Source: a virus
Lineage: Duplodnaviria; Caudoviricetes
Strand: one strand, 5' to 3'
IMG/VR virus record: IMGVR_UViG_3300037484_000435
Location: 96,001 to 160,000 of that record
Length of the DNA: 64,000 nucleotides
Part shown: one piece after another, positions 2,807-22,126 of the stretch
Numbering within the stretch: the stretch's first letter is position 1
How the letters are laid out: the number at the start of each line of letters is the position of its first letter
Made by a program: the position numbers and the translations under genes
The notes under the pieces: model-generated
Database searches by the model: none
Told to the model about the DNA's origin: nothing
Seen by the model: the letters and a program-made list of their open reading frames with translations, nothing else

Positions 2807-3118
2807 ATGAATGTAAGAAAATTAAAAGTATACCACGAATGTGCTGTAGGATGTCCAACATGCTATGGTTCAGGAGAGGGTATGTATGACGGGTCCAGAG
2901 GGTGTCAATCGTGTAAAGGCACGGGCACCCTATGGAACGACGGAGAAGTTACAGACCAATTTGAAGTTGAATGGTCAAAAGAGAATTTTGATGATTTGGA
3001 GATTATTGACGGGACCAATGACCGACAATGCCAGTACTGTGGGCAAAACTTATTGGAAAACATAATTGAAGAATTATCGTGGAAATTAAAGGAAGAAATT
3101 AATGAAAGTAAACTTTAA
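2807..3118 (+). CDS. zinc-binding protein with DnaJ-type CxxCxGxG repeats
   Basis: CPTCYGSG and CQSCKGTG, plus a distal CQYC. Confidence 0.7.
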   Translation: MNVRKLKVYHECAVGCPTCYGSGEGMYDGSRGCQSCKGTGTLWNDGEVTDQFEVEWSKENFDDLEIIDGTNDRQCQYCGQNLLENIIEELSWKLKEEINESKL

Positions 3119-3359
3119 ATGTCCCGAGTGTGACCATGATATACTTGTAGAGATTTCGACCGCCACCGAGTCGATACCTGTGGTATACGCAGAAAAAACT
3201 ACCGGTGGTAGTACCCTGTTAGATTATGGAGATTCGTTCGGTATAGACTATGATGACGCCCCACAATCTTATAGGTGTGCACTCTGTGACAAGAAGATTG
3301 CTACAGATTCAGATGAACTTTACGCATGGCTTAAATTCCAAGGAATGCTAGAAGATTGA
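3102..3359 (+). CDS. zinc-ribbon protein, paralog family member A
   Basis: VNFKCPEC...YRCALC...ELYAWLKFQGML. Confidence 0.75.
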   Translation: MKVNFKCPECDHDILVEISTATESIPVVYAEKTTGGSTLLDYGDSFGIDYDDAPQSYRCALCDKKIATDSDELYAWLKFQGMLED

Positions 3360-3616
3360 CAACACGAAAAATAAAATTTAAATGCCCTAAATGTGGTGAT
3401 AAGACTCTCTGTATCAACCAATTATCATTTGAATCCATGAGCGTTGATGAAGAGATGGAAGATGACCGTTTTCTTTCAACAGATTATACCTTGGATTATG
3501 AGTTGGATTCAGTTCTTAGTATAGGTTGCTTTAAGTGCGGGTTTGTGGTTGGCTCGGATGTAAGTGACGCCTGCAAGTGGTTGATTGATAATGATATGAC
3601 GGAGGTAACTGCATGA
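3356..3616 (+). CDS. zinc-ribbon protein, paralog family member B
   Basis: IKFKCPKC...IGCFKC...DACKWLIDNDM. Confidence 0.75.
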   Translation: MTTRKIKFKCPKCGDKTLCINQLSFESMSVDEEMEDDRFLSTDYTLDYELDSVLSIGCFKCGFVVGSDVSDACKWLIDNDMTEVTA

Positions 3617-3891
3617 TAGACTACACATTTATTTGTCCTTATTGTCTTCAACGAGCAAACATAATCGAACGGTGCTTAATTATACGGGACACGAGAATGA
3701 TTGGGTTCTATCAATATGAGGGCTTCGATTACCCCCATCCCGAATTTAGTGCAGACGAAGATTTTGATACAGATGGTGGGGAATATTCTTACGTATGCTC
3801 TAACTGTGAGCATGAGTTACGAACTACATATGAGCAACTTTATAACTATATAAAGGAACATGGGTCCTTAACCGTAACGGAGGTGACTTAA
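3613..3891 (+). CDS. zinc-ribbon protein, paralog family member C
   Basis: YTFICPYC...YVCSNC...QLYNYIKEHGSL. Confidence 0.75.
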   Translation: MIDYTFICPYCLQRANIIERCLIIRDTRMIGFYQYEGFDYPHPEFSADEDFDTDGGEYSYVCSNCEHELRTTYEQLYNYIKEHGSLTVTEVT

Positions 3892-3895
3892 TGCA

Positions 3896-4423
3896 ATGTT
3901 AGACTACAACAGACTGATCGCGACATGGAACGAATTTATACAAGAATACCCAGACGCTATTGATATAGCGGAATTTGATATTCTAAAAGAAGATGCCTAC
4001 ATAAAAAAAGTAGGTAGTAAATGGTGTATTTTCTCTGAAGATGGCCGCAATCTAGGATGCAAAGGTTCCAAAAAAGAAGCAGAAGATCGGCTCGCTGAGA
4101 TTGAAATGTTCAAACATATGAAGAGCGGGCAGGAAGAAAGTGTAAAAAAATCTAGGCGTAAATTCTGCATATGTGATAACTGCGGAGTCGAGTTCACTAC
4201 AACCAAAGAGTGCGACCTAACCAAGTGCCCGTCATGCGGAGAGTACAAGGGTGTGGATGTCGAAGACGAAGAGATGACGCAGAACTCTGAGAAGACTATC
4301 GCTAAACAGGAATGTTACTGCCCTGATTGTGGCCGAGAGTTTTTTGTAAGCACCATGTGCCACCTTGAGCGGTGTAGATATTGCGGCGGGGATGATTTGG
4401 AAGAAATCACAGGAGAACTTTAA
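3896..4423 (+). CDS. hypothetical protein with a small phage module and two Zn-finger units
   Basis: YIKKVGSKWCIFSEDGRNLGC...EAEDRLAEIEMFKH, a module I recognise from other phage proteins; CDNC/CPSC and CPDC/CRYC pairs. Confidence 0.65.
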   Translation: MLDYNRLIATWNEFIQEYPDAIDIAEFDILKEDAYIKKVGSKWCIFSEDGRNLGCKGSKKEAEDRLAEIEMFKHMKSGQEESVKKSRRKFCICDNCGVEFTTTKECDLTKCPSCGEYKGVDVEDEEMTQNSEKTIAKQECYCPDCGREFFVSTMCHLERCRYCGGDDLEEITGEL

Positions 4424-4441
4424 GGAGGTAACTAGTTTGGG

Positions 4442-4825
4442 ATTACTGAACATGATATAATAGCGATCGACCTCGCAACGCAGATCGCACAAAATAGTGA
4501 CTACAGGCAAAGACATGGAGCCGTACTTTACAAGAGGAGTAAGATAATTAGTGTAGGGTTTAATAGACTGAAGACTCACCCTAAGGCATTGCCTTTTTAT
4601 AAATATCCGTTTATCCATGCGGAGATGGACACTATAATACGAGCCCCAGAAAATGAAATTTTGGGTGCTAGTCTTGCTTGCGTCAGGATTAACAGGAGCG
4701 AGGACATCAGGCACTCCCATCCCTGCCCAGAATGTATGCGGATGATGCGTTACTATGGGATAGCTTACATAGTATACTCTACCCAAGACGGAATAGAGAA
4801 AGAATTCCTAAGAACAAAACAATGA
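4442..4825 (+). CDS. zinc-dependent cytidine/dCMP deaminase-like protein (start uncertain)
   Basis: HGAVL...IISVGFN...IHAEMD...PCPECM (HxE/PCxxC). The frame is open from 4436 with no ATG/GTG/TTG before 4589, so an ATT/ATA start is assumed. Confidence 0.75.
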   Translation: MTEHDIIAIDLATQIAQNSDYRQRHGAVLYKRSKIISVGFNRLKTHPKALPFYKYPFIHAEMDTIIRAPENEILGASLACVRINRSEDIRHSHPCPECMRMMRYYGIAYIVYSTQDGIEKEFLRTKQ

Positions 4826-5340
4826 AATTTAAAGACATACCCAAGTTCACTCGGTGTGCGAACTACCGTGTTACACAACCGTGGAACTATATGAAAGGTT
4901 GGATTGATAAGAACATCGAGGAGCTGAACCTCGATATGAATCCAGATTTCCAACGTGCTTATGTGTGGACTCCTGAACAGAAATCGAGATATGTGGAATA
5001 CATATTGAAGGGGGGAGTATCTGGAAAAGAAATTTATTTTAACTGCGTGGGATGGATGATGGATTTTCAAGGACCCTTCGTAATTGTAGACGGAAAACAA
5101 AGGGTAAATGCTGTGCTGGAATTTCTAGATAATAAAGTCGCAATATTCGGTAACAACTTTTACCAAGATTTTGAAGATAAACTCGGAACGATGGATGCTT
5201 ATCTTTTGTTTAATGTTAATGACCTCCCTACACGGCGTGAAGTCCTGCAATGGTATCTTGACTTAAATACTGGTGGGACAATACACAGCGAGGACGAATT
5301 GAATAAGGTAAAAAGGTTATTGAAGCAGGAAAAAGTTTAA
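4822..5340 (+). CDS. DUF262 (ParB-like/GmrS-type) domain protein
   Basis: PDFQRAYVW...EQKSRYVEYILKG...IVDGKQR. Confidence 0.85.
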   Translation: MKFKDIPKFTRCANYRVTQPWNYMKGWIDKNIEELNLDMNPDFQRAYVWTPEQKSRYVEYILKGGVSGKEIYFNCVGWMMDFQGPFVIVDGKQRVNAVLEFLDNKVAIFGNNFYQDFEDKLGTMDAYLLFNVNDLPTRREVLQWYLDLNTGGTIHSEDELNKVKRLLKQEKV

Positions 5341-5342
5341 TT

Positions 5343-6701
5343 ATGTCAAAAGTCACAAAATTATCTGGCCCCGACCCAGGGGCATTCGATGAAACAATTA
5401 AATGGAACGTTTTGAGTTGCGGAAATATAGAGGTTAACTCAAATAAATATTACGTAATTGAGATACAACGTAATCGTAATACTGGGGAGCACCGCGTTTA
5501 CACGCAATATGGGAGAATAGGCTCATCTGCCGTGTATGAAATGCGGGGGCCTTATTCAGAGTATGACGCCACAAAAGATTTTGAATCAATTCTTAAGGCG
5601 AAACAACGCGGAAAAACGGGTGGAACTAGCAAGTATGCTATAGTGGATGTGATTACACCCACCGTGGGTTCCTACAATATACGAGGAAAAGCACAAACTA
5701 TAAAGGTAGACAGCTCTAAGGACATGGTGGCCCAGTCAAGCCACAAGTTCACACCAGATGTAATGCGGTTGCTCAACCAATTTGCTGACGAAAACATACA
5801 TAATATTACGTCAACAACTAGCATGTCGTTCACATCGCAAGGACTAGAAACAGCACTAGGACCAGTAACAGAGTCCCATGTGCAAAAGGCCAGAGAAGAA
5901 CTCCAAGCTATCCAAACGATAGTAAAGTCTAATGGTGGTAAAGTTTCGAGTCCCTATCACGATTTTGTGCAGGCTAATAATCGTTACCTAAGCCTGATTC
6001 CACATACCTTTGGGAGAAAAATAACTGAGTCTGATTGGATTGCGGACGACTCTAAATTGATTGAAGAGTTTGATTTGTTGGACCAGTTAGAGGCGGCGGT
6101 CAAGCTAGGCCTAAAATCCAACGCCCCCCAACAGTTCAAAGGATTGGATACAGACATCTTTACTGTTGCGGACCCAAAGCCGTTTATAGAAATGGTTAAC
6201 AAAACCAAAGCTCATACCCACCTCAATAGATGGCAGGTAAAGAATGCTTACGAAATAACTATATCCAAAGAACGTGCTCGCTTTGATGTGAACAGTTCCA
6301 AATACGGAAATTACAAGGATTTCTTCCACGGCTCAACCAACTGTAATTTTCTTTCTATATTATTGGGTGGATTAATCATACCAGGGCACGGCGATGGAAT
6401 CGCAATAGCTGGTAGAATGTTTGGAAATGGAATCTATGGAGCGACAAGCTCAACAAAGTCCCTAAACTATTCCGTAGGAAGTTGGACAGGAAGGAGGAAC
6501 AAATATTCAAACGCGTTTCTTCTGAGAGTTAAATTTGCCATGGGTAAAATCTATGAGCCCACCCGATCTGGGAGTCCACCCTCAGGTTATAATAGTGTGG
6601 CAGCTTATGCAAAGAAAACTGGTTTACAAAACGACGAATTTATTGTTTATAATTTAGAGCAATGCACAATAACGCATCTGCTCGAACTCGAACAGCGATG
6701 A
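5343..6701 (+). CDS. poly(ADP-ribose) polymerase: WGR, helical regulatory and catalytic domains
   Basis: NSNKYYVIE...TQYGRIG (WGR); NRYLSLIPHTFG (regulatory domain); FHGS, GRMFGNGIYGA..STKSLNY and NDEFIVY (H-Y-E triad). Confidence 0.92.
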   Translation: MSKVTKLSGPDPGAFDETIKWNVLSCGNIEVNSNKYYVIEIQRNRNTGEHRVYTQYGRIGSSAVYEMRGPYSEYDATKDFESILKAKQRGKTGGTSKYAIVDVITPTVGSYNIRGKAQTIKVDSSKDMVAQSSHKFTPDVMRLLNQFADENIHNITSTTSMSFTSQGLETALGPVTESHVQKAREELQAIQTIVKSNGGKVSSPYHDFVQANNRYLSLIPHTFGRKITESDWIADDSKLIEEFDLLDQLEAAVKLGLKSNAPQQFKGLDTDIFTVADPKPFIEMVNKTKAHTHLNRWQVKNAYEITISKERARFDVNSSKYGNYKDFFHGSTNCNFLSILLGGLIIPGHGDGIAIAGRMFGNGIYGATSSTKSLNYSVGSWTGRRNKYSNAFLLRVKFAMGKIYEPTRSGSPPSGYNSVAAYAKKTGLQNDEFIVYNLEQCTITHLLELEQR

Positions 6702-6907
6702 GGCTAGAAAGGACAGATAAAATGAAACCTGTGGAAGTCTATTGTTGTGGAGAAGTCATCTCTTGCACCGACGCAGTTAACGTATGCGATACATGCGGGG
6801 CTGAGTATGACATTGAGGGTGACAAAATAACTAACAAAAAACTTTGGACTAATACTAACATAGACGATCTGTGCGACTCAACAGACGTAATCATAGTAAA
6901 CGAATAA
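6698..6907 (+). CDS. small Cys-rich zinc-binding protein
   Basis: VYCCGEVISC...NVCDTCGAEY; similar to the next ORF. Confidence 0.6.
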   Translation: MRLERTDKMKPVEVYCCGEVISCTDAVNVCDTCGAEYDIEGDKITNKKLWTNTNIDDLCDSTDVIIVNE

Positions 6908-7170
6908 TGAGGCTTCCGATGAGTAGAGTAATTCAATATGGCTCCAGTGTTGTAGATGAACATGGGGTCTTACAAAAGAAATATACTGTAGTTGAATGTT
7001 GTGGTGATGAACTTTATTGTTATGGATTTACAAACACGTGCCCAATTTGTGGTGCTGATTATAACCAAGCAGGACAACGACTAGCACCAAGAGAACAGTG
7101 GGGCGAAGAAACAGGTGAGCATTATACAGATATACTCAACATGCGTGAACCGTGGGATGACAATTATTGA
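6907..7170 (+). CDS. small Cys-rich zinc-binding protein
   Basis: VECCGDELYC...NTCPICGADY; TAATG coupling to the upstream gene. Confidence 0.65.
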   Translation: MRLPMSRVIQYGSSVVDEHGVLQKKYTVVECCGDELYCYGFTNTCPICGADYNQAGQRLAPREQWGEETGEHYTDILNMREPWDDNY

Positions 7171-7333
7171 GGAAGACAAGAAACTTGAGATAGATTGGGA
7201 AGGGGCATTTGATGAAGCTGTGACTCTATTCGTACAAAAGGGAGGACTGATTGATACTCTTAGACTTGAGGAAGTTAGAGCCGAACTAATCGCCCGCCAC
7301 ACCCATTACGTCGATATTGTGGACACACAATGA
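7157..7333 (+). CDS. hypothetical protein
   Basis: MTIIEEDKK..., overlaps both neighbours. Confidence 0.45.
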   Translation: MTIIEEDKKLEIDWEGAFDEAVTLFVQKGGLIDTLRLEEVRAELIARHTHYVDIVDTQ

Positions 7334-8016
7334 TAACCACCAATAAAAATCCTAACATGATTACTGCTTGTGAGGCGGCTGAAAGCTACGCACAAATGAA
7401 GAAAGCGGATTATATGTTTTCACTCATTGATTATTTAGTAAGTGGTCTTAGTTCCTGTAGTCATGAATTAATCATACCACCTAATATATTTGGAGTGTAC
7501 AGGTGTGTAAAATGTGGGTTGCGATTTTCCCTCCGTTCACTCCGAGAAAGAAACAGAAGAGAGGTTTCAAAACAAATGTGTACAGTAGATGAAGAAAGAA
7601 TCATAAAGATGAAAGTGGAGGAGTTCCTCCAACAAGGTAAGATGTTTACCTCAGTCGACATTGCAAACGAAATAAAATTATCAGGGACGTGGATTCGTAA
7701 CCGCGACGTTGCAGGCTACTTGAGGGGCAATGCTATGAGTCTCGCCCGTATGCTCATGATGGTGTATAGACAAACCCTAATTCCTGTTACATTGGACGAT
7801 GGGACAGTGTCTGAAACTTATTTGTACCACCCGATACAGACAGATGCCAGTGAATACACCACTACAAACCAGCGAGCTTTAGACCCGCTCACCGCTAACC
7901 ACCCGAGATCGGCATCGATACACATACAAGCTGCCCCACCAGTGGTATCAAACCCAACACCTGTGGATACTACACCGAGTTTCGATATCAATCCTTGGCG
8001 AGTAGCTAGTGTCTGA
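7330..8016 (+). CDS. hypothetical protein
   Basis: 228-aa ORF with CVKC and a Pro-rich tail. Confidence 0.6.
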   Translation: MITTNKNPNMITACEAAESYAQMKKADYMFSLIDYLVSGLSSCSHELIIPPNIFGVYRCVKCGLRFSLRSLRERNRREVSKQMCTVDEERIIKMKVEEFLQQGKMFTSVDIANEIKLSGTWIRNRDVAGYLRGNAMSLARMLMMVYRQTLIPVTLDDGTVSETYLYHPIQTDASEYTTTNQRALDPLTANHPRSASIHIQAAPPVVSNPTPVDTTPSFDINPWRVASV

Positions 8017-8314
8017 TTGGAAATTACCGGGCGATCAACGACGAAAATTGTTTCGCCGTTATGTGGACCTCCAAATGCGACATGTGCATGAGGAGGTCTT
8101 CAAATATGTGAGTGAAGTTAGGAGTGATTTGTGTATCAACGATATAATGGATGACATACCAGATTTAATGTATCATTCATTCTACGAGCGTCCTCGCGAC
8201 CCGAAAGCAGTTGAAGAGATGTTATCAATACACAAATTATTAACGGAGAAAAAAGATGGACCAACCAACGAAATTGACACACCTAGCAAGCCTGAACAAG
8301 CAGGCCTCAATTGA
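8009..8314 (+). CDS. hypothetical protein
   Basis: 101-aa ORF. Confidence 0.5.
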   Translation: MSDWKLPGDQRRKLFRRYVDLQMRHVHEEVFKYVSEVRSDLCINDIMDDIPDLMYHSFYERPRDPKAVEEMLSIHKLLTEKKDGPTNEIDTPSKPEQAGLN

Positions 8315-8426
8315 TCAGCTCAAACATGAGTTAGATATACTAGAAAAATACTTTCTAGTCCATGGTACTTTCGAGCAAGCCCTGAAAAGTATACACCAAA
8401 CAATTAAGACGATCGAGAAGGAATAG
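8256..8426 (+). CDS. small hypothetical protein (below the ORF-track cutoff)
   Basis: GGAG RBS then MDQPTKLTHLASLNKQ...KE*; fills the gap before 8433. Confidence 0.45.
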   Translation: MDQPTKLTHLASLNKQASIDQLKHELDILEKYFLVHGTFEQALKSIHQTIKTIEKE

Positions 8427-8432
8427 TAATTG

Positions 8433-9704
8433 ATGGTACAACAAGCGTTTGATTTTGAAAAATTTGCTATCAGAGATGTGAAATTAACCCAAGAAATCAA
8501 AGAAGGAACTTACCCAATTAATCAAGCGACAGTTATTTCTGTCAGTGCCCTAGAAGATATAAAAGACCTATTACGTTCTAAACTTTTGGACAATACAGTT
8601 TGGGGTGCCGAGCCTATCTCTGAAAAATCCCTTAGGGGCCTGATGGATGAAATAGGAACTGAATGGACAACCAAACAAGGGAATTGGCCCAAGCGTTTCG
8701 CTAAGGTCTTTAAATACCGAAGAAGCCAGAAGTTCGATAATGACTTTCTCTCGCGGGTTGGAAAAATAGCGAGAGAATCATGTATTATGTCCACTGGTAA
8801 GGAACTAGTGGTTTCGAAAGACTTCGATTGGAGTCCGGGGGACTACGGTGACTACGACTCGTGCTTCTGGAGATGCAGGTCTGGAGCCAAGAAGATACTT
8901 AGAGACGCTCGTGCATTTGCACTGCTGATCCACGGAGAAGACGAGAACCCGTTAGGCAGAGCATGGTGTGTGCCCTATAAGTCTTATTACGTAGTGTTTA
9001 ATGCTTACGCACGAGGCGGGGAATCGATTACTATTGTAACCTTCGCCAGAATAGTGTCGGATATATTCAATTTTCCCTACTACAGGAACGTCCGACTTAC
9101 ATGCCGAGGAATGACTGAGGGACCTCTCTGGATAAATAACGGGAAAGGCTATGTTGTAGGACCACAAGAGGTAGCAGACCTAGATGATGTCAATTTAGAG
9201 CACGCTCTGTACTGTTCGAGCTGTGACGAAGAGTGTTGTTACGAAGCCCACCTTGAAGACGACAGAGTGTTTTGCGAGAACTGCTATTCAGGGTCTAACG
9301 TGTGTGAGTGTTGCGATCGACGCATACACGATGACGACACTTATTGGGTACATGACACAGCTATTTGTGGAAATTGTGCGGACAATGATGCCGAGCGTTG
9401 TTATGAGTGCGAGAACCTAGAGTGGAACGACAACATCACCTACTACAGAGATGAGGCTTATTGCGAACGTTGTGTAGATAGAAAATTTGTTACGTGCGAT
9501 AAATGTAAAGAATTGGTACATCAAAAGGACACATTTAGCCTCAGAGACGGGTATTGCTACTGTGATGATTGTGTAGATGAACACACTTTCATTTGTAAAG
9601 AGTGCGGATACAGGTTTTCCAATCTAGAGGACCACGAAGAGGGAATGTGCTGGACGTGCTACCGCAAGCAACATCCAGAGGCAACCTCTCAGCTAGCTGT
9701 GTAA
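8433..9704 (+). CDS. uncharacterised phage domain fused to about five tandem zinc ribbons
   Basis: DYGDYDSCFW...GRAW in the N-terminal half; ten CxxC motifs in the C-terminal third. Confidence 0.75.
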   Translation: MVQQAFDFEKFAIRDVKLTQEIKEGTYPINQATVISVSALEDIKDLLRSKLLDNTVWGAEPISEKSLRGLMDEIGTEWTTKQGNWPKRFAKVFKYRRSQKFDNDFLSRVGKIARESCIMSTGKELVVSKDFDWSPGDYGDYDSCFWRCRSGAKKILRDARAFALLIHGEDENPLGRAWCVPYKSYYVVFNAYARGGESITIVTFARIVSDIFNFPYYRNVRLTCRGMTEGPLWINNGKGYVVGPQEVADLDDVNLEHALYCSSCDEECCYEAHLEDDRVFCENCYSGSNVCECCDRRIHDDDTYWVHDTAICGNCADNDAERCYECENLEWNDNITYYRDEAYCERCVDRKFVTCDKCKELVHQKDTFSLRDGYCYCDDCVDEHTFICKECGYRFSNLEDHEEGMCWTCYRKQHPEATSQLAV

Positions 9705-9714
9705 AGGAACCTAA

Positions 9715-10641
9715 ATGAAAGTTAACCTGAAGATACTAAAGAACATCTGCACGCTGGATGAAGATAAACTCAAAAACCATCTTACGGTTGTAAGACCTAA
9801 CTTAAAGGACCACGGGACATACCTCTATAGTGAGAGCCCAGACGCAAAAGTATTAGCGGTAGCACATCTTGATGTGCATACCGTTCTAAACGCCCAGTTT
9901 CGTTTGGTTAAAGACGAAAATACAACGGTCATACTACACCCTGGTCTAGATGACCGTTTAGGAGTATTCACTATCCTTTATCTATTCCCTCAATACGGAA
10001 TTGCAACCGACATATTACTAACCACTGACGAAGAATGTTGTATGTCCACCGCACGTGAGTTTGTAGAGAATTGTAAAAAGGATTATAATTGGATTGTTGA
10101 ACTGGATCGTGCAGGCGAAGATTTTGTCATGTACAATTATGATGATGACAAAGAAATAATTCACGACTTGAAATCAGTAGGATTCCAACTTGGTGTGGGT
10201 TCTTACTCGGATATTTGTGAGATGGAGGAACTAGAAGTCAGTGCCTTTAATATGGGCATTGGCTATCATTTCCAACACACCCCACAATGTTGCGTAATTC
10301 TTAGGGAGTTGGCCAAACAATTGCGTAAACTAAAGAATTTCTACGATGAATTTAAAGACAAAGCCTACACACATGTTTACGACCCAACTACAGCCTATTC
10401 ACGCTTTGGTAGTCTAGGTGTTTACTATCCGTCAGATCGTGACTTCCGCGATGAGGCCGATTATCTTTACGGTACATCTAGGGATCGCGAAGAGGAAGAC
10501 GATTACGATGGTGCAGACGTCTACTGGAAAAATGGAAAAATGCACTGGTCCTATGTGGCCCCGCGTAGGGCCTCCTGTGGGCAGAGTCGTGATCGAAGGT
10601 TGTGGAGTGGTCACTGGGACGAAAACGAAGCGGACTACTAA
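9715..10641 (+). CDS. M28/M20-like zinc peptidase
   Basis: AHLDV, GLDDRLGV, TDEE, ELDR, YSDI and GYHFQHT metal-ligand motifs. Confidence 0.8.
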   Translation: MKVNLKILKNICTLDEDKLKNHLTVVRPNLKDHGTYLYSESPDAKVLAVAHLDVHTVLNAQFRLVKDENTTVILHPGLDDRLGVFTILYLFPQYGIATDILLTTDEECCMSTAREFVENCKKDYNWIVELDRAGEDFVMYNYDDDKEIIHDLKSVGFQLGVGSYSDICEMEELEVSAFNMGIGYHFQHTPQCCVILRELAKQLRKLKNFYDEFKDKAYTHVYDPTTAYSRFGSLGVYYPSDRDFRDEADYLYGTSRDREEEDDYDGADVYWKNGKMHWSYVAPRRASCGQSRDRRLWSGHWDENEADY

Positions 10642-10658
10642 GGAACAAAGAAAGGAAT

Positions 10659-10958
10659 ATGACTGCAGGTAAAAGCTATTACATAGATTTCAGGTGCCCC
10701 AAATGCGGGCACCCGAGATTGGAGGAAAAGGTAGAGGGAGTAATCTGGTTTAGCGAGGTTAACTCCTTCTATCAAGAAGAAGATGGTCTCACAACTAGTG
10801 AGGAAATGGGGGATATGGAAGATTTCCATGAAAACTCTGAAGTGACAGCGTATCTTTGCCAAGAGTGCGGACACATAATTGCTACAGATGCTTACGAAGC
10901 CTTAGAATGGCTTAAAGAACACGGCATGATAGGAAAGAACCCATATGAAACCGCATGA
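10659..10958 (+). CDS. zinc-ribbon protein, paralog family member D
   Basis: IDFRCPKC...YLCQEC...EALEWLKEHGMI; AAGGA RBS. Confidence 0.75.
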   Translation: MTAGKSYYIDFRCPKCGHPRLEEKVEGVIWFSEVNSFYQEEDGLTTSEEMGDMEDFHENSEVTAYLCQECGHIIATDAYEALEWLKEHGMIGKNPYETA

Positions 10959-11172
10959 CGGGCCTGAAACCGCCGATGAAATTTATCCGTGGTTACTGGA
11001 AGACGAAGACCCCCCCCCAGAAATGAGCGATCTGGACGCGTTAGACATGTTAAATTATTTTCGAGACCGCTCGCTCAGTAAAGGGTATATGATTATACCT
11101 GATTTTGAAACGCTAATGCAAGCCGTATACATAGCCACAACGTGGTATTATGAACGGCAAGGAAAGGAGTAA
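10945..11172 (+). CDS. hypothetical protein
   Basis: 75-aa acidic ORF. Confidence 0.5.
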   Translation: MKPHDGPETADEIYPWLLEDEDPPPEMSDLDALDMLNYFRDRSLSKGYMIIPDFETLMQAVYIATTWYYERQGKE

Positions 11173-11588
11173 TGGGACAATACCACATAGTCTGTAATGT
11201 TGACAAGGGTGAATTTTTACACCCATGGAAATTCGGCCAAGGATTGAAATTCCTAGAATTTGCTACCTCAGGCGATGGGATACTTTACGGACTAGCTACA
11301 TTAATCGCAGATAGCATGGGCAGGGGTAGTGGGGACCTTAGAGTGGGGAACGCTATAATAGGTTCTTGGGTAGGAGACCGTGTAATAATTACCGGTGACT
11401 ACGGAGGAAAAGAACACATTCCGCAGGAAGAACGTAGGGACTACGAGAGTTTCTATGATTACGCTATAAACTGCTATGAAGATATCAGTGATAAAGTTAT
11501 TAAAGCCATACGTAATGCTGACCCCCACTCTCGTCTGCAGAACGTGAACTTCACAGAAGAGGGCTGGCGACATGTCCGAAGCAATTAA
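11172..11588 (+). CDS. conserved phage hypothetical protein
   Basis: MGQYHIVCNVDKGEFL...GSWVGDRVIITGDY, a pattern I recognise from other phages. Confidence 0.65.
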   Translation: MGQYHIVCNVDKGEFLHPWKFGQGLKFLEFATSGDGILYGLATLIADSMGRGSGDLRVGNAIIGSWVGDRVIITGDYGGKEHIPQEERRDYESFYDYAINCYEDISDKVIKAIRNADPHSRLQNVNFTEEGWRHVRSN

Positions 11589-11805
11589 ATGTCCTAACTG
11601 TGGAAAGAAAGAAATAACGATTACTGGAACGTTCAAGATTTATTATCATTGGCTTCAAGCAGAAGAAGACAAACACTCCCCTTGCTTTTTTGATTATGAA
11701 CTGGGGGATTACGAACCGATTGATGGCTACCCTCTTGAATTTATATGTCACTCCTGCAACCATGTATGGGAAGGAGACAATGACAAGGATTACTTTACTG
11801 ACTAA
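11572..11805 (+). CDS. zinc-ribbon protein (possibly a distant family member)
   Basis: IKCPNC...FICHSC. Confidence 0.6.
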   Translation: MSEAIKCPNCGKKEITITGTFKIYYHWLQAEEDKHSPCFFDYELGDYEPIDGYPLEFICHSCNHVWEGDNDKDYFTD

Positions 11806-12146
11806 TGTTACCAACAATCAAACTGAAAAATATTGATACGCAAGTAACTTTTCACGGGGATATTGATTGGGAAAAGCACCTCAAAGATAACACCCCAATT
11901 ACACAACTCCTCGATAACCTACGCCCAGATTTGAACGTATGGTTATACATTCCCCAAGGTTGGGGCTCAAACACTAGACCAGAACAACACCAAGACTTAA
12001 GGAAATACATAGAAGATAACTTAGGTTACGACAGTATAAAAGGAAAGATGAGAATCTGGGATCATCGCGGTGACTGTTATCGACTATGGTGCAGGGACAG
12101 ATTAACCTTTATTCGTATTTTGAATCTGTTCAAGGACAATGAATGA
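11805..12146 (+). CDS. hypothetical protein
   Basis: 113-aa ORF, TAATG coupled. Confidence 0.55.
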   Translation: MLPTIKLKNIDTQVTFHGDIDWEKHLKDNTPITQLLDNLRPDLNVWLYIPQGWGSNTRPEQHQDLRKYIEDNLGYDSIKGKMRIWDHRGDCYRLWCRDRLTFIRILNLFKDNE

Positions 12147-15237: not shown

Positions 15238-15582
15238 ATGGAACACTACAGGGGTACCCATGTAATCATTGACCTGTTTGGCTGTAATTTTGACCTCATA
15301 AATGATGGGCCGTACATGGAAAACGTATTGTGCGAAGCATCAGTAGAGGCAGGTTGTACTATATTACATAAGTACACACATAAATTCGAACCCCAAGGGG
15401 TAACAAGCATAGTAGTGTTGGCAGAAAGCCACATATCTGCCCACTGCAGTCCAGAGTATAATAAAATTTGGATAGACGTATTTACGTGCGGCAGCAGAGC
15501 CATGCCCGAGAAAGCTGTGGCCCTCCTGATTGACAAATTGAAACCAGAAACATTCACCACAGAAACTATTGAGCGTGGTTGA
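15238..15582 (+). CDS. speD: S-adenosylmethionine decarboxylase proenzyme (class 1B)
   Basis: GTHVIIDLFGC...FEPQGVT..VLAE|SHISAH..PEY...DVFTCG; self-cleavage Ser, His and Cys all present. Confidence 0.93.
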   Translation: MEHYRGTHVIIDLFGCNFDLINDGPYMENVLCEASVEAGCTILHKYTHKFEPQGVTSIVVLAESHISAHCSPEYNKIWIDVFTCGSRAMPEKAVALLIDKLKPETFTTETIERG

Positions 15583-15628: not shown

Positions 15629-16597
15629 GTGTTAACGAAGGAATTAAAGGAGTTCACCTTTATTGACCTCTTTGCTGGTATAGGCGGTTTTAGATTGGGC
15701 CTAGAAAGCATAGGCGGAAAGTGTGTGTTTTCTTGTGAGGTAGATAAACATGCGGCTAAGACCTATGAAGCTTGGTATGGAGATAACCCACTAGGCGATG
15801 TAACACAGCTTAACCCATTAGATGTACCAGACCACGATATACTGACGGGAGGATTTCCTTGTAAATCCTTCAGCATAGCTGGTGTATCACAACGGGTCGG
15901 AACAAATAAGCCCCATGGATTTGACGACAAAGATACCGGACACCTGTTTTTTGAGATAATCAGAATTTTGAAAGTAAAATGCCCGCCAGTAGTTCTGTTG
16001 GAGAATGTAAAAAATTTACGGTCCCACAACCAAGGTCGTACATTCTCAACAATTCAGAAAAAACTCGGGGAGCTTGGGTACAAAGTATTCTATGAAGTAA
16101 TAGATGCTAAATATTACGTTCCACAACATCGAGAAAGAATAATCATTGTAGGTTTGAGAAAAGATGTATTTGGAGAAGAAATAAATTTTGAATTTCCTAA
16201 TCACGACAAACTCGAACCGAAGAAATTAAAAAGTATTCTCGAAGAAAACCCAGACCCAGCTTATACTCTACCTGATGGAACATGGGCCTACCTACAAAGA
16301 CGAAAACAAACGAATATAGACAACGGAAAGGGGTTTGGTTACAGTTTGGCAAACCCAGAAGGTATCACTCGAACTCTAAGTGCAAGGTATGGAAAAGATG
16401 GGGCGGAAATACTAATTAAACAAAGTGGAAACCCGCGGAAACTCACAACTAGGGAGACAGCCAGACTAATGGGTTTCCCAGACCATCTCCCTATTGTTGT
16501 ATCAAAAACTCAAGCATACAAACAATTTGGGAATGCAGTAGTGCCATTAATAATAAAAGCCGTTGGTCTAAAGATAAGAGAACTAATCACATCCTAA
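15629..16597 (+). CDS. dcm: C5 DNA cytosine methyltransferase, Dcm/EcoRII-like
   Basis: DLFAGIGG, GFPCKSFS, LENV, QHRERI, TLSARYGKDGAEILI (Dcm-like target-recognition region), QFGNAV. Confidence 0.9.
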   Translation: MLTKELKEFTFIDLFAGIGGFRLGLESIGGKCVFSCEVDKHAAKTYEAWYGDNPLGDVTQLNPLDVPDHDILTGGFPCKSFSIAGVSQRVGTNKPHGFDDKDTGHLFFEIIRILKVKCPPVVLLENVKNLRSHNQGRTFSTIQKKLGELGYKVFYEVIDAKYYVPQHRERIIIVGLRKDVFGEEINFEFPNHDKLEPKKLKSILEENPDPAYTLPDGTWAYLQRRKQTNIDNGKGFGYSLANPEGITRTLSARYGKDGAEILIKQSGNPRKLTTRETARLMGFPDHLPIVVSKTQAYKQFGNAVVPLIIKAVGLKIRELITS

Positions 16598-16643: not shown

Positions 16644-16650
16644 AAACCAC

Positions 16651-16896
16651 ATGGCAGCACACAGAATGGCCTGGACTTTGTCCGAGACCAAACAACTAAT
16701 TGAAAACTTTGACGAACCCATACAGGTATTAGAAGAATTATTTCCGCGTCACCCTAAAGCGAGCATAGAAAGAAAGATGACACGCTTGCGTAAAGAGGGA
16801 AAGATTGGTATGAAGTCAGAAGACACAGTCAAACAAGCATATAAAATGCGACATATCCCAGAGAAAGAATTAACAAAGAAACGACCCCTTAAATAA
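16651..16896 (+). CDS. small Myb/SANT-like HTH protein
   Basis: WTLSETKQL...LFPRHPKASIERKMTRL; AGGAGGT RBS 7 nt upstream. Confidence 0.55.
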   Translation: MAAHRMAWTLSETKQLIENFDEPIQVLEELFPRHPKASIERKMTRLRKEGKIGMKSEDTVKQAYKMRHIPEKELTKKRPLK

Positions 16897-17159
16897 TGAA
16901 AGACTACGAAGAAAAAATTATTGCTCTGCTTCGAGAAAAAGGTGACTACTCCTTCGGTCTATTAGGTTATATATCGGACCAGTACACGGCAGGCGAGCTT
17001 ATGCAAATACCAGCAGTGTACTCGGCAGTAATAAATAGTCACGGGAGCTTGTTTGTGGAAGACGTAATCCAAGAAGCTATTGAAGATGAAGGTTACCCAT
17101 TCCGAGAAGAGTTGCTCCAACTAGTCCCCGAAGACGTGCAACTAGGAGACCCCTCGTGA
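16896..17159 (+). CDS. hypothetical protein
   Basis: 87-aa ORF, TAATG coupled. Confidence 0.5.
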   Translation: MKDYEEKIIALLREKGDYSFGLLGYISDQYTAGELMQIPAVYSAVINSHGSLFVEDVIQEAIEDEGYPFREELLQLVPEDVQLGDPS

Positions 17160-17629
17160 GTATGCAGAAAGCAACAATCGAAAGATTGGAGCAGTCAGCA
17201 CTAATAATACGCACAGAGTTACAAGGATACCAAATCGGTAAGTTTACCAAAGAGCCTGAATTAGGTGTGTTTGATATCCCCATGTTTGGTATTCGTATTA
17301 AATGCGTAAGTAACTTCAGGGATGACGATGCGAACTTTCGTGTAATTGACATACCAGATATAGACTCCTTTGACAGGAATAAGCTATTCTTGGAACTTGC
17401 CTCTAGTGGATATTTGCGTTGGATACGTACAAAATATAGCTCACATGGGTATTTTGTTTTATTATCCTATGAGAAACGTGGAGAAAAACTACTCAAGGCA
17501 GCAAAGCTTAAAGCAAAAGAAAACAAAACAGGAGATTTCCGTATCAAATACTTAGAAAGCTTAATCAGAAGGCCTTTCATAGAAGTATATCAGGAAGACC
17601 CTACTATTTTCGATTGGATAATGCTATGA
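17156..17629 (+). CDS. hypothetical protein
   Basis: 157-aa ORF. Confidence 0.55.
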   Translation: MSMQKATIERLEQSALIIRTELQGYQIGKFTKEPELGVFDIPMFGIRIKCVSNFRDDDANFRVIDIPDIDSFDRNKLFLELASSGYLRWIRTKYSSHGYFVLLSYEKRGEKLLKAAKLKAKENKTGDFRIKYLESLIRRPFIEVYQEDPTIFDWIML

Positions 17630-17979
17630 GAAAAATCAACTTTAGATGCCCCGCCTGTGGATGTAGAAAGGTTCTCCAAGTAGAAACAGGAGCGGTATTA
17701 AAAAGCCCTATAACAGAATTAGAGGTTGAAGGGGGCATAGTCGAACTGGAATACGAGAATGAGGGCACGCTTATAATCACAGACGAGACTGAAGTCCCCA
17801 TGCAGATAATATGTTATGAATACGCAGATTGCGGAAGTTTCCTAGTAAGAGGAGACGGAGAGCCCTGCGTAACCCCCGAGGACCTGTTCAGATGGTTACG
17901 GGGAGAAGGAATGTTAGGAGGAGAGGAAAGTAAAAATGAAAAAGATATTGTTAGTAGTGTTACTTGGCATAAGCCTTAG
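17626..17979 (+). CDS. zinc-ribbon protein, paralog family member E
   Basis: INFRCPAC...YADC...EDLFRWLRGEGML. Confidence 0.7.
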   Translation: MRKINFRCPACGCRKVLQVETGAVLKSPITELEVEGGIVELEYENEGTLIITDETEVPMQIICYEYADCGSFLVRGDGEPCVTPEDLFRWLRGEGMLGGEESKNEKDIVSSVTWHKP

Positions 17980-18292
17980 TGGATGTGCCACCCTAGGCTC
18001 GATGTACACAAGGGCAAAGGATTGTGTTTATCCACCAGAGAAACCTGTAGTAACTGAGACGCCCGCTGTTGCCCCAGCCCCGCCTGTAGCGGAACCCACT
18101 ATTAAGATTCCCGAACCAAAAGTGGAACCAACAACTCCGAAAGCGGAGCCAGTTGTGCCAAAAAAGAAACTCAAAAAGAGTGACTTTACAAAAAAGAAAG
18201 TAGACCAATTACCTTTCTACACAAAAGAACGTAAAAAAGTAGAAGACGATCTACAGAAAGAGAAGGCCCCCGCACCACCAGGAGTTAAGTAA
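17936..18292 (+). CDS. Pro/Lys-rich lipoprotein
   Basis: Signal peptide MKKILLVVLLGISLSG|C with lipobox LSGC. Confidence 0.75.
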   Translation: MKKILLVVLLGISLSGCATLGSMYTRAKDCVYPPEKPVVTETPAVAPAPPVAEPTIKIPEPKVEPTTPKAEPVVPKKKLKKSDFTKKKVDQLPFYTKERKKVEDDLQKEKAPAPPGVK

Positions 18293-18627
18293 TGTCTGGT
18301 CCCCCAGATTATATCTACACCGCGCAGCGTCTGTGTAATGATATTGAAGACACCTGCAGGGGCTCTATAGAAGAGCTTATCAACGCCCTTGTTTCTATAA
18401 AGAACCTGCAGGCAGAATTAAAAGATTGTGAGAATTTCGAAGAAGGAGTAGACGAACAGCTGAAGTATAGTTGTGAAGACCTTCTTCGAACTCTAGCAAT
18501 CGTAAGAGAAGATTCCGATATGCTCGCATCCCAATCAAACAAAATATTTGAAACATTGGGACTAAAGGCAGAGTGGGATGACAAAAGAGAAGAATGGCAT
18601 TTGAAAGGAGAGGTCTACGAAAGGTGA
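18292..18627 (+). CDS. hypothetical coiled-coil protein
   Basis: 111-aa ORF, TAATG coupled. Confidence 0.55.
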   Translation: MSGPPDYIYTAQRLCNDIEDTCRGSIEELINALVSIKNLQAELKDCENFEEGVDEQLKYSCEDLLRTLAIVREDSDMLASQSNKIFETLGLKAEWDDKREEWHLKGEVYER

Positions 18628-18781
18628 GAAACACAACAGCATTTGTTTACACTCCTAAGAAGGTGCTTCCAAACGCAAGCATTGATGAACGGTAAATGCT
18701 GTGATGTACCCGCTACCCTAATCTTCGACGATAGTAAGTGCTAAACAATAGGTTTTGATTAAATTACTTTAGGAATACAGG

Positions 18782-19426
18782 ATGATTAATTTTCTGGAAA
18801 ATGAGATTTATCAACGATACACAAAAAGTGACACACACCGAGCAATAATTTTACCACTACTAATGGCCCAAGAAAACTTGAGTATCTTGAATCGTAACGA
18901 CATAAAGAGGGCTTTCGAAACCCACGGAATAAAAACATCAGCACAGAAAACAGCCTTTAGATTTCATAAAGTATTCTATGATGGTGATGAGTGGTATACC
19001 TTCCCCCGTGTCATTACGAATGAAAATATTCATGAAGCCTATACTTACCATCTAAATCAGGATGCTAAAGGTTTCTACGCCCACCTCAGTGCCCCCAGAT
19101 CCCCCGCGGATAGGACACAGTTAACTTTGATAGAAGATCTGCAGTATAGGGTTCGCGAGCTCGAAGATGACAACATGGCACTATCACGAGTTGGCTGGCA
19201 TTTGTACGAACGCGTAATTGACATGAAGGAAGAATTAAATACTCGGGCCGAGAAAGCCATTGTTAATCTACGAAAGTCCTTTATAGCTATGGGGTTTGAA
19301 ATATCGAAAACCGCGGGTAATTTACCCGAACCTGAGAGCCCTCTCAAGAAAATATTAACAGAGGATGATGCAGAGGATTTGTTGTCTAAATACACGGATC
19401 CGAAGTACACGGATACAGATGAGTAA
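18782..19426 (+). CDS. hypothetical protein
   Basis: 214-aa ORF. Confidence 0.6.
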   Translation: MINFLENEIYQRYTKSDTHRAIILPLLMAQENLSILNRNDIKRAFETHGIKTSAQKTAFRFHKVFYDGDEWYTFPRVITNENIHEAYTYHLNQDAKGFYAHLSAPRSPADRTQLTLIEDLQYRVRELEDDNMALSRVGWHLYERVIDMKEELNTRAEKAIVNLRKSFIAMGFEISKTAGNLPEPESPLKKILTEDDAEDLLSKYTDPKYTDTDE

Positions 19427-19946
19427 TACTTTCTTTACAGCGGATCCCCATTATGGGCACGCTAATATTATTAGACACAGCAAACGTCCTTTCTCGGATC
19501 ACGAAGAGATGGACGAGACGATGATTGAAAATTGGAACAAGGTAGTGGGCGTAAACGACGAAGTGTATATCTTGGGAGACTTCACTTTCTATTCCAAAGT
19601 TTTGGTTACGAACCCCGCGAGTATATTCGCCCGCTTGCGGGGCCGTAAATATCTTATAAAGGGCAACCATGACAGAGACTTTACCTTTAAATTACCGTGG
19701 GCATGGGTGAAAGATACTTACTTTGTTAAGAATCTAAACCAAGAAGGTATCTGGTTAAGTCATTACCCGCACCGCTCTTGGAGAAATTCCTTCCACGGAA
19801 GCTGGCACCTATTCGGACACAATCATGGTCACGTAGGACCTTATGGAAAATCGTTTGATATAGGTGTAGACTGTTGGGAATTCACACCAGTAGAATTTGA
19901 AATTGTAAAAGCAAAAATGAAAGAATTAGAATGGATTCAGGAATAA
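19419..19946 (+). CDS. calcineurin-like metallophosphoesterase
   Basis: ADPHYGH, LGDF, GNHD, SHYP, GHNHG, DIGVD. Confidence 0.9.
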   Translation: MSNTFFTADPHYGHANIIRHSKRPFSDHEEMDETMIENWNKVVGVNDEVYILGDFTFYSKVLVTNPASIFARLRGRKYLIKGNHDRDFTFKLPWAWVKDTYFVKNLNQEGIWLSHYPHRSWRNSFHGSWHLFGHNHGHVGPYGKSFDIGVDCWEFTPVEFEIVKAKMKELEWIQE

Positions 19947-20335
19947 CAAAAGACCAAGTAAATGAGATTTCGTCTAACCAATCCTTCACTTTTTATATCA
20001 AGCATGATGGGAGACTAAGCATAGCAGAGCTCACCTTTGATGACTACGTTTACCTAAATGCTCTGGCCACACATGGTATACGCCCGCCAGGACGTTTACT
20101 ATATTTCAATAGACTAAAAGCCATGCCCGAAGGAATAGGTTTGGGCACACATTTAATGAATAGGTTGGAAGAAGTGTGCGATAGGGAATCATATACTGTG
20201 TGGTGTGACTTAAACCCGTATGGTTCCTTAGACTATGAGCAACTCAAAACCTTCTATACGAAATTTGGATTTATAGAATTTGGTTTAGAGGGGGCGTTGA
20301 TACGACTGCCGAAAGGAAAGAGCGATGAAAGTTAG
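19931..20335 (+). CDS. GNAT-family acetyltransferase
   Basis: EGIGLGTHLM (acetyl-CoA loop)...LKTFYTKFGF. Confidence 0.75.
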   Translation: MDSGITKDQVNEISSNQSFTFYIKHDGRLSIAELTFDDYVYLNALATHGIRPPGRLLYFNRLKAMPEGIGLGTHLMNRLEEVCDRESYTVWCDLNPYGSLDYEQLKTFYTKFGFIEFGLEGALIRLPKGKSDES

Positions 20336-20573
20336 TGTAGAGATAGAACCTGGGAAGGTCCAAGAAATCGCGGACAGAGAGTTCTCTGACCTCGTAAGCC
20401 GAAACATAATGACTACCTTCTGTGAAAGCCCAAGATTCTGGGATGTAGTAGACGAAGAAATCATTGGGTATTTAGAATCTGATAAATTTGTACAACTGAT
20501 TAGAAAAGTAATTGCGGACTCGGAAGAGTCTTTGGCTCAGGCAATCAAAAATAGATTTCTTATGAAGGAATAA
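20325..20573 (+). CDS. hypothetical protein
   Basis: 82-aa ORF. Confidence 0.5.
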   Translation: MKVSVEIEPGKVQEIADREFSDLVSRNIMTTFCESPRFWDVVDEEIIGYLESDKFVQLIRKVIADSEESLAQAIKNRFLMKE

Positions 20574-20577
20574 AACC

Positions 20578-20919
20578 ATGAGTGTCCCAAAGGAACTGAT
20601 GGACTTCTATACTAAGGTATGCCAAGCCCGAAGCCCAGAAGAAATCTTTGGGGGTCTGAATTCGGGTAATCCTATAGAAGCACTAAAGAAGGCTTACCAC
20701 GCGAATTCTTTTGCGTGTCATCCAGACCACTATGCCACCGACCCAGAGGCAACCTTGTATGCAGAAACCACATTCAAACTGGTGCACGAACTGTTTGAGG
20801 AAGCCCAAAAAAAGATAGAAAATAAGACTTACGGTAAGCCTGACGCCCCGGTCCGCTCTCATTGGGAATGGTTATCAGCATGTGCGTTTACCAAATGGAA
20901 GAGAACCACTATAAATTAG
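20578..20919 (+). CDS. J-domain (DnaJ-like co-chaperone) protein
   Basis: LKKAYH....CHPD...F..V.E.FEE with the HPD motif. Confidence 0.75.
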   Translation: MSVPKELMDFYTKVCQARSPEEIFGGLNSGNPIEALKKAYHANSFACHPDHYATDPEATLYAETTFKLVHELFEEAQKKIENKTYGKPDAPVRSHWEWLSACAFTKWKRTTIN

Positions 20920-20947
20920 AACAACAAATCAAAGGAAATAAAAATCA

Positions 20948-21274
20948 ATGAGCACAGAATATGATGCCGTAGTATTCTATGGCGTTCTAGTGTCCCAAGC
21001 AGAAGTAGACGCTTGGGAAAAGAAAACAAAAAAGAATTTCTATGACCAAGAAGCCCACGACTGTCATGTTTATATGTATGGTGATATGATTTGTGGAGAG
21101 ACTGGTTACGCGGTCAGTGTTGATGGGTCAATGGAGTGGGCAGAGTTTACGGCTAAAATTCTGACAAATGAAATCACTGGGTCTTGGAATGAACGCCTGT
21201 ATGAATTCTTCAAAGAAATTGATATGCCCTACGATAAAACCCCATCGTGGATACTCACTATGACGTGTGGTTAG
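20948..21274 (+). CDS. hypothetical protein (paralog of 22347..22670)
   Basis: A.V.YG....WE.K.....D.....C.....GDM...W.L...CG pattern shared with 22347. Confidence 0.6.
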   Translation: MSTEYDAVVFYGVLVSQAEVDAWEKKTKKNFYDQEAHDCHVYMYGDMICGETGYAVSVDGSMEWAEFTAKILTNEITGSWNERLYEFFKEIDMPYDKTPSWILTMTCG

Positions 21275-21509
21275 AATGACCTACATACAACCCGAAGACT
21301 TTCCGTTGCTACCTCCCGAACAATACTCAAACGAGTTATGTGATTGCGGAAGTGGTAGAGTCAGAAGCAAAGAGAAGAGACATCTAAATACCATGTACCA
21401 TGACGAGGAATCTAATTGGGCTCAACCATGTTGTGATGAATGTTTTGCAGACGTATGGAATTACTACACAGAGCGGTGGGAGGATTACTATGCTGGACTA
21501 TTTGGATAA
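21267..21509 (+). CDS. small Cys-rich protein
   Basis: LCDCGSG (partly SEC-C-like) and CCDEC. Confidence 0.5.
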   Translation: MVRMTYIQPEDFPLLPPEQYSNELCDCGSGRVRSKEKRHLNTMYHDEESNWAQPCCDECFADVWNYYTERWEDYYAGLFG

Positions 21510-21852
21510 GTTGGCTTTAGAAAATAAGGAAGAAATCTTGATCTGCCCTAAATGTGGTGCCCCCTTGGCTGGGTCCTATATGGTGCAGACATTTGCAAAT
21601 CACATGACTATAGATAAATACCAACGTATAGGGTTTGCCAATAGGGAGGGGCCACTTGACGCCGACATAGATGAGAGTGAGCTCTACGACTTGCTGTGTT
21701 ACAAATCCAAGTGTAATTGGTCACTAAGAAAGGAGCTGGGCGACTCGCTACCTAGCATCTATGATAAACGTAGCCTGCCTAAAGAGGCGATACTAGAACG
21801 GATAGTATTACCTATGAGGAAAGAGCAAGATGATCTGTCAAACGAAAGTTAA
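21490..21852 (+). CDS. zinc-ribbon protein
   Basis: LICPKCGAP...LLCYKSKC. Confidence 0.55.
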   Translation: MLDYLDKLALENKEEILICPKCGAPLAGSYMVQTFANHMTIDKYQRIGFANREGPLDADIDESELYDLLCYKSKCNWSLRKELGDSLPSIYDKRSLPKEAILERIVLPMRKEQDDLSNES

Positions 21853-22126
21853 ATTTGTATGCCCCAGTTGCGGGGGCACTACTCTGAGAGAAGAGCGCGC
21901 TGTTAGAGTGTTCTCCTACATAACAGGTATTGAGAGTAGCACAGATTTTGAATACCGCCCCATAAGAGATGGAGATGTAGATTGGGAGAACTCTACTTGG
22001 ATAACAACAGAGTGTGCAAACTGTCACAGACCTCTCCGAGGCACAGATGAGGATATGATTAAATGGTTAAAAGAGCAAGGAATGCTCGTGGAACCCGCAG
22101 GAGATGGACAAGATGCCCCTTCTTAA
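21830..22126 (+). CDS. zinc-ribbon protein, paralog family member F
   Basis: VKFVCPSC...TECANC...EDMIKWLKEQGML. Confidence 0.75.
   Translation: MICQTKVKFVCPSCGGTTLREERAVRVFSYITGIESSTDFEYRPIRDGDVDWENSTWITTECANCHRPLRGTDEDMIKWLKEQGMLVEPAGDGQDAPS

Follow-up and report, generated by a model that had tools for sequence, protein, structure and literature searches.

Small acidic zinc-ribbon paralogues of a giant phage belong to a large protein family and are predicted to form intertwined homodimers

The question raised by the locus described here is whether a set of small cysteine-containing genes in a giant phage genome forms a single protein family and, if so, what its members could do. The genes lie in a stretch of 64,000 nucleotides (nt), hereafter the window, which corresponds to bases 96001-160000 of the IMG/VR record IMGVR_UViG_3300037484_000435 (Caudoviricetes). 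A preliminary description, made by a model from the letters of the sequence, had pointed to six open reading frames (ORFs), named here by their window start positions (3102, 3356, 3613, 10659, 17626 and 21830), as a paralogue family with fixed ends and a hypervariable acidic core. The six ORFs were found on the + strand with the layout claimed for them, that is, [VI]xFxCPxC, 44-54 residues, a distal cysteine pair (CxxC) and a WLKExGM-like tail. When each was compared by phmmer with all 3,050 genome ORFs of at least 40 amino acids (aa), the other members were retrieved with E-values from 1e-7 to 1e-2, and almost nothing more. Moreover, a hidden Markov model (HMM) built from the six, a search proposed in the same description, recovered them in the genome and added two ORFs, at genome positions 95298-95567 (E 1e-5) and at 11572 (E 4e-4). 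With a family-wide profile of 133 sequences (A3), seven full members were detected with E-values from 6e-14 to 8e-28, the six flagged ORFs ranging from 1e-16 to 1e-28. Cysteine-rich short ORFs are common in this genome, and a mere chance recurrence of CxxC in short ORFs was considered; however, it is refuted by the mutual similarity just described, the full-length profile matches, the purifying selection on orthologues and the confident fold reported below.

In total, the genome encodes eight paralogues, seven full and one truncated (Table 1). The WLKExGM-like C-terminal helix is present in all seven full members and is missing from 11572, which keeps both cysteine knuckles and the beta insert. 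This ORF was considered a real, truncated member because a related phage carries an orthologue 42% identical to it (L014, positions 18635-18934); a phmmer search with it against PDB sequences gave spurious matches only. It was one of three ORFs previously offered as more distant members, of which 2807 did not hold up. The latter (2807-3118, +), the first gene of the operon that contains the tandem trio, scored 0.3 bits with A3, a value reached by 121 of 300 shuffled sequences, and its hhalign comparison with the family had a probability of 4.7% over 23 columns, covering the CxxCG...W tail only. It combines an N-terminal DnaJ-type CxxCxGxG pair (Pfam DnaJ_CXXCXGXG, E 0.017, below the cut-off) with a family-like CxxCG...W.LKEE tail. 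Another ORF, at genome positions 81762-82118, also opens with a DnaJ-type CxxCxGxG double motif, and its phmmer link to 2807 was weak (E 0.025). The third ORF, 21490 (21490-21852, +; the C-terminal part of ORF 21400-21852), scored 9.0 bits where its shuffles reached at most 4.5, a lenient control because shuffling destroys CxxC motifs, and neither hmmsearch over the genome ORFs nor a six-frame search detected it at E ≤ 1; it is possibly a very distant relative.

The family extends far beyond this genome. When 1.84 billion cluster representatives were searched exhaustively with a profile, 591 proteins had E ≤ 1e-3; almost all of these were 80-120 aa long and were matched over their full length. 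The top representative match, P0018 (3,932 aa, 24 matching stretches), was discarded as a repeat protein matched at the FxCPxC knuckle only. The consensus reads F-x-C-P-x-C-G ... L-x-E ... V ... G ... Y ... Y-x-C-x-x-C-G ... L-x-x-W-L-K-E-H-G-M-L. In A3 (10659 numbering), C13, C16 and C70 were invariant and C67 was conserved in 99% of the sequences, followed by L81, W84, L85 and M90 (74-91%). Furthermore, two domain copies occur in one chain in, among other examples, P0025, P0026, P0073, P0109, P0147 and P0150, and a Pfam scan of ten longer fused forms found no domain in their C-terminal extensions. Outside the megaphage lineage, members were found adjoining DUF932 and a TnpB, near PNKP and RlaP genes, and within a series of small phage-like genes including one of the Tad4 family, on a 5.8-kb contig that holds two copies. 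The family is large, and the settings in which it occurs resemble those of phages or mobile elements. Look-alike clusters in the ESM Atlas were 'hypothetical proteins' of viruses, Bacillota and Methanobacteriota, with viral, bacterial and archaeal labels. No match was obtained by tblastn of 10659, P0053 and P0024 against 50,697 GenBank phage records, or of P0024 against the PLSDB plasmids, and pattern searches of viral contigs (with A4, 17626 and A5) and of metagenome contigs (with A5) gave pattern matches and no confirmed relative.

The family had not been recognized earlier as a named one, and the database searches agree: no model of Pfam, NCBIfam, PHROGs or PADLOC reached its threshold for any window member, and a profile search of PDB sequences gave a best E-value of 0.015. 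Among the 133 members, database matches were confined to the knuckles and to generic zinc ribbons, and no tabulated score reached a gathering cut-off (nine window ORFs and ten fused forms were tabulated, the rest of the 133 being judged by E-values). PADLOC gave one stray ZorE match, and PF27609 ('Rv1322') matched two members faintly; both were set aside. The families DUF6487 (PF20097), CpXC (PF14353) and HVO_2753_ZBP (PF07754) likewise have two CxxC knuckles with a long spacer, but none of them is defined by a WLKEHGM helix or has a known function. For DUF6487, the score of 10659 was borderline (23.8 bits against a gathering score of 24, profile positions 1-63 of 67); this family was outside the 25 families most often matched by the 133 members, and its ESM Atlas cluster gave template-modelling (TM) scores of 0.35/0.44. 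CpXC was rejected, with 25 of the 133 members at E < 0.01 (best 1e-4), a top tabulated score of 22.1 bits (P0031) against a gathering score of 25.4, and partial matches, while HVO_2753_ZBP matched 41 of the 133 at E < 0.01 (best 3e-5) at the knuckles or partially. The Lar/RalR family (PF14354, TIGR03655) is also made up of small phage or prophage proteins with a CPxC...CxxC layout, RalR being now annotated as a DNase toxin. TIGR03655 was weakly matched by four of the 133 members; the Pfam score was 15.5 bits against a cut-off of 28.6, and the hhalign comparison with Escherichia coli RalR covered nine columns of the first knuckle (probability 18%), so this candidate was also rejected.

Structure prediction, as had been proposed, was carried out on 10659. 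With an alignment of the seven paralogues, the AlphaFold2 model was mediocre (predicted local distance difference test, pLDDT, 76), and with the 133-sequence alignment a confident fold was obtained (pLDDT 90.7; predicted TM score 0.68). In that model, the knuckles C13/C16 and C67/C70 meet, six short strands lie within residues 21-67, and the conserved helix spans residues 78-87. A single Cys4 zinc site, uniting the N-terminal CPxC with the distal CxxC, is predicted with high confidence to staple a beta-sheet of 41-56 residues; beyond the sheet, an amphipathic helix (L..WLKEHGML) and then an acidic tail are predicted with the same confidence. The prediction of two copies gave ipSAE (an interface score computed from the predicted aligned errors) values of 0.66-0.67 in three runs, compared with 0.00 for the best of three controls, and showed a contact agreement of at least 98% and a partner pLDDT of at least 87. 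In calibration, the mark used with this tool was reached by 20 of 30 solved homo-pairs and one of 23 solved single chains, counts that apply only roughly here because an author-supplied alignment was used. The predicted interface comprises about 155 contacts, with strand 22-26 running antiparallel to strand 29-33 of the partner and helix residues 81, 82 and 85 packed on partner residue 37. The two chains are predicted to intertwine as a symmetric homodimer, whose interface consists of the helix and, within residues 20-50, the strands of the insert, and the model suggests that the dimer is probably obligate. A working unit of two copies is consistent with the natural fusions of two domains. In fold searches with Foldseek and BFVD no clear relative appeared, the best BFVD matches being unnamed small viral proteins (best E 0.018).

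These predictions bear on the earlier picture of a diversified insert carried by a constant scaffold. Since strands occupy residues 21-67 of the model, the insert is structured, and it is predicted to be a beta-sheet at the homodimer interface, with no free display loop; the insert and the WLKEHGM helix would largely be dimer-building elements. The description of the core as unrelated between paralogues was right as regards its low pairwise identity, which among the seven paralogues was 13% for the insert, compared with 46% for the N-terminus and first knuckle and 26% for the second knuckle and helix. However, relatedness of the inserts can still be traced. In the 133 members, positions 21, 28, 34, 37, 48, 50, 62 and 65 of 10659 were hydrophobic in 71-98% of cases, while positions 38-47, 49, 52, 56, 58 and 61 were variable and acid-rich. 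In addition, with an insert-only HMM trained outside the window, scores of 20-31 bits were obtained for four of the seven inserts and of 8-10 bits for the other three, against a shuffle maximum of 12.

Furthermore, the insert is not hypervariable in the sense first proposed, as each paralogue and its orthologues in related megaphage contigs had well-conserved inserts. The ratio of nonsynonymous to synonymous substitution rates (dN/dS, Nei-Gojobori), pooled over only four orthologue pairs, was lower for the insert (0.14) than for the ends (0.23), which indicates purifying selection where a test for positive selection had been proposed. Whole-gene values ranged from 0.11 to 0.49 in three unsaturated pairs, and the 17626 pair was saturated at synonymous sites. 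On this small sample, the divergence of the inserts appears to be an old divergence of paralogues under purifying selection, with no ongoing diversification. Amplification by duplication was borne out by the copy number in the stretch flanked by the DHH gene on one side and the GmrSD_N/PARP genes on the other, where three tandem members are found here, four in a 15.6-kb JGI contig and five in L014, which comes from a 381-kb contig. L014 has orthologues of 3102, 3613 and 11572 (Table 1) and of the upstream member (45% identity), together with an additional copy resembling 3102 (44%) and two members that have no equivalent in the present genome. A tandem array that gains and loses copies between related phages is thus supported by these comparisons.

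The strong acidity noted in the preliminary description was verified. The seven full members had net charges from -6 to -14 and isoelectric points (pI) of 4.2-4.7, while the mean net charge of the 133 members was -10.3, with lysine and arginine accounting for 8% of residues; in the insert, aspartate and glutamate reached 22%, and lysine and arginine 6%. Nucleic-acid binding is common among zinc ribbons, and the NCBIfam model PRK14890 ('putative Zn-ribbon RNA-binding protein') weakly matched 28 members, with the N-terminal knuckle only in the one tabulated; both points would speak for structural or regulatory ribbons that bind DNA or RNA directly. However, such a negative charge is electrostatically unfavourable for binding a polyanion and therefore makes direct nucleic-acid binding unlikely, so this explanation is disfavoured and regarded as very improbable.

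Our best guess, put forward tentatively, is that the proteins are dimeric, non-enzymatic acidic binders or decoys used in host takeover or counter-defence. By decoy or mimicry, the acidic dimers would cover the basic surfaces with which host (or phage) proteins bind nucleic acids, and each paralogue would have a target of its own; the fixed hydrophobic skeleton would build the dimer, and specificity would be set by the variable, acid-rich positions of the surface. No catalytic motif was found in the members. The decoy reading is the most economical one because it accounts for a zinc-stapled beta domain, a probable dimer, an acidic surface, the lack of a catalytic motif, and paralogues that are widespread and conserved. 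Also counted in its favour were the family-wide acidity, the accessory-gene neighbours, the turnover of the array, the purifying selection and a weak fold match to a disputed anti-CRISPR protein. The ideas of nucleic-acid mimics, anti-defence proteins or adaptors, raised in the preliminary description, are plausible on the basis of the acidity, the accessory-gene neighbours and this weak fold match. Ocr and ArdA, DNA-mimic anti-restriction proteins from mobile elements, are strongly acidic, non-enzymatic and dimeric. The likeness to them suggests a possible mode of action, on the basis of bulk charge and the predicted dimer alone, as Ocr and ArdA have unrelated folds without a zinc ribbon.

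The fold match just mentioned was the best one of Foldseek in the PDB, the entry 7XMW 'AcrVIA2' (E 0.086, probability 0.96), with 25% identity over the whole 72-residue chain. This Leptotrichia prophage protein (Lin et al. 2020) is about 20 residues shorter than the members, and the score lies below any safe threshold. The anti-Cas13a activity of the Lin et al. 2020 set was not reproducible in an independent study (bioRxiv 10.1101/2021.05.27.445852), and a 2026 review (PMC13131331) assigns 7XMW to a different, 61-kDa AcrVIA2 of Listeria. The match was taken as a fold lead only, lending no function, because the activity was not reproduced.

A further explanation is that the members are zinc-ribbon transcription factors or adaptors docking on the host or phage RNA polymerase, like the TFIIB, TFIIS and Brf1 ribbons or the zinc-binding anti-sigma factor Fin, in which case the paralogues would retarget transcription at different stages. 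A precedent is the proposal made for the zinc-ribbon expansion of phage G (Iyer 2021, PMC7824862), where a small zinc-ribbon protein has likewise multiplied in a very large phage, its function being unexplained. However, the matches behind this explanation span the generic ribbon only, and no polymerase gene is adjacent to the members. Moreover, A3 found nothing at E ≤ 1 in the 497-kb phage G record NC_023719, with the eight copies of the present genome as a positive control, so that only a more remote homology would be possible. Unlike the phage G expansion, the present one comprises only eight copies, and the family is widespread beyond the lineage. Docking on the polymerase is thus held to be unlikely.

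More specific questions are raised by 17626, whose second knuckle was described earlier as degenerate. It reads Y-E-Y-A-D-C here and Y-E-C-x-x-C in all six orthologues, the first cysteine being replaced by a tyrosine (codon TAC at 17821-17823, one base from a cysteine codon), so the earlier remark was accurate for this copy and the cysteine is retained by the six orthologues. There are spare cysteines three residues upstream and, invariant in the subgroup, in its extra loop, and zinc might be bound by these instead. In three related contigs, the 17626 orthologue is immediately preceded by a gene for a 157-aa protein of no known family (17156-17629 in the window), and a 4-nt ATGA stop/start overlap joins the two genes in the present genome and in the two contigs with gene coordinates; the product of the 157-aa gene is a candidate functional partner of 17626.

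This arrangement leads to another explanation, in which the members would be partner-specific neutralisers or chaperones of a neighbouring gene product, in the manner of the zinc-binding N-domain of the antitoxin MqsA, which binds its toxin via a beta-sheet. The constant position of 17626 orthologues after the 157-aa gene, with the overlap, speaks for it, as do the conserved upstream genes abutted by 10659 and 21830 and the presence of MqsA in the Foldseek list (E about 1, probability 0.38). However, the MqsA match is not significant, and neither the tandem trio nor the arrays of four to five copies in relatives have interleaved partner genes. This explanation is accordingly considered improbable, and the acidic decoy is the reading that we favour. 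It may be extended to the idea that the family represents a fold class of its own, in which zinc-stapled homodimers would be obligate and intertwined, with the divergent insert as interface. Insert divergence would then insulate the paralogues from cross-pairing, and the members would be mutually orthogonal acidic decoys for different DNA- or RNA-binding host proteins with roles in defence or housekeeping, forming a widespread anti-defence or takeover family of phages and mobile elements. Taken as a whole, this extended proposal is unlikely.

Regarding the genome setting, the 545,322-bp record (GC content 0.42) was rated complete by CheckV, and the region was present in one sediment DNA run only. 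A megablast search of window positions 2800-12000 against GenBank phages gave no match. The record contains 40 tRNA genes, one of them with a CTA anticodon (genome 47126-47202, outside the window), which is a potential amber suppressor; the region studied is open under the standard code. From position 1 to about 30 kb of the window, nearly all genes are on the + strand, with many small ORFs mixed with accessory enzymes (Table 1). The eight family members all lie inside 23 kb (4%) of the genome in this accessory-gene arm, and most of them have Shine-Dalgarno sequences or 4-nt start/stop overlaps.

Table 1. Positions of the family members and of the annotated neighbouring genes (window positions unless marked as genome; identities are those of the orthologue to the copy listed; RBS, ribosome-binding site)
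Feature	Position	Strand	Length (aa)	Orthologues	Remarks
Seventh full member	genome 95298-95567				ends 433 nt upstream of the window start
DHH/DHHA1 phosphoesterase	1727-2806
Member 3102	3102-3359	+	85	P0008, P0021, L014:8753-9013 (64%)	first of the tandem trio; A3 E 6e-24; AGGAAG RBS; 17-nt overlap with the end of 2807
Member 3356	3356-3616	+	86	in L002, same TTG start; dN/dS 0.11	TTG start; 4-nt overlap with the upstream stop; A3 E 3e-18
Member 3613	3613-3891	+	92	P0006, L014:9712-10014 (53%); dN/dS 0.16	ATGA overlap with the upstream gene; A3 E 4e-16
GmrSD_N/DUF262 protein	4732-5340
WGR-PARP	5343-6701
Member 10659	10659-10958	+	99	P0009 (72%)	most consensus-like; the copy modelled; A3 E 8e-28
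Truncated member 11572	11572-11805	+	77	L014:18635-18934 (42%)	A3 25.9 bits, E 1e-6; 0 of 300 shuffles as high
S-adenosylmethionine (SAM) decarboxylase	15238-15582
Dcm methylase	15629-16597
Member 17626	17626-17979	+	117		extra loop and tail; ATGA overlap with the gene at 17156-17629; A3 E 3e-21
Member 21830	21830-22126	+	98	P0014, P0023, P0027, P0029	A3 E 7e-23
RNA-ligase-like protein	22681-23853

Several other genes of the same arm were noted. The adjacent, overlapping ORFs 6662-6907 and 6871-7170 are paralogues (BLASTP E 1e-9, 35% identity over 37 residues) sharing a CCG..C..C..CGA.Y core and constitute a second, different cysteine-rich mini-family, 6871 being without a Pfam match. A four-gene block containing 21830 is flanked by another pair of paralogues, ORFs 20948-21274 and 22347-22670 (108 and 107 aa, 32% identity, E 8e-15), both with a Cys-Gly end; a Pfam scan, of 20948 only, gave no match. 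Right after the tandem array, the gene at 3896-4423 encodes 175 aa with two C.C..CG.EF...C....C..CG repeats and without a Pfam or A3 match, its size and its place after the array being kept in related contigs. The protein encoded at 8430-9704 (424 aa) has about ten CxxC pairs in its C-terminal half and no Pfam match, and relatives keep it as a gene of 421-452 aa. Elsewhere, a HEARO (IscB omega-RNA) match was found at 40074-40267 on the minus strand, its score of 118 bits exceeding the gathering score (83), and group II intron reverse transcriptases (RVT_N, RVT_1, GIIM) were found near family members in two related megaphage contigs (L014:3341-4801 and L011:2002-3525).

Overall, the expansion of a small zinc-ribbon protein in a giant phage is of a known kind. 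No paper on this particular family was found in the literature searched, nor any description there of the fold or of the dimer predicted for it. Such expansions were noted before, in phage G, and never explained, and the present family is far larger, with at least 591 clusters. For a family that had neither a database model nor a solved structure, there is now a fold predicted with confidence, along with a dimer prediction and well-defined sets of orthologues, and proteins of about 90 aa make a cheap experimental target. Finally, if the insert is the dimer interface, these paralogues would offer a natural setting in which to study how homodimers escape cross-pairing after duplication.

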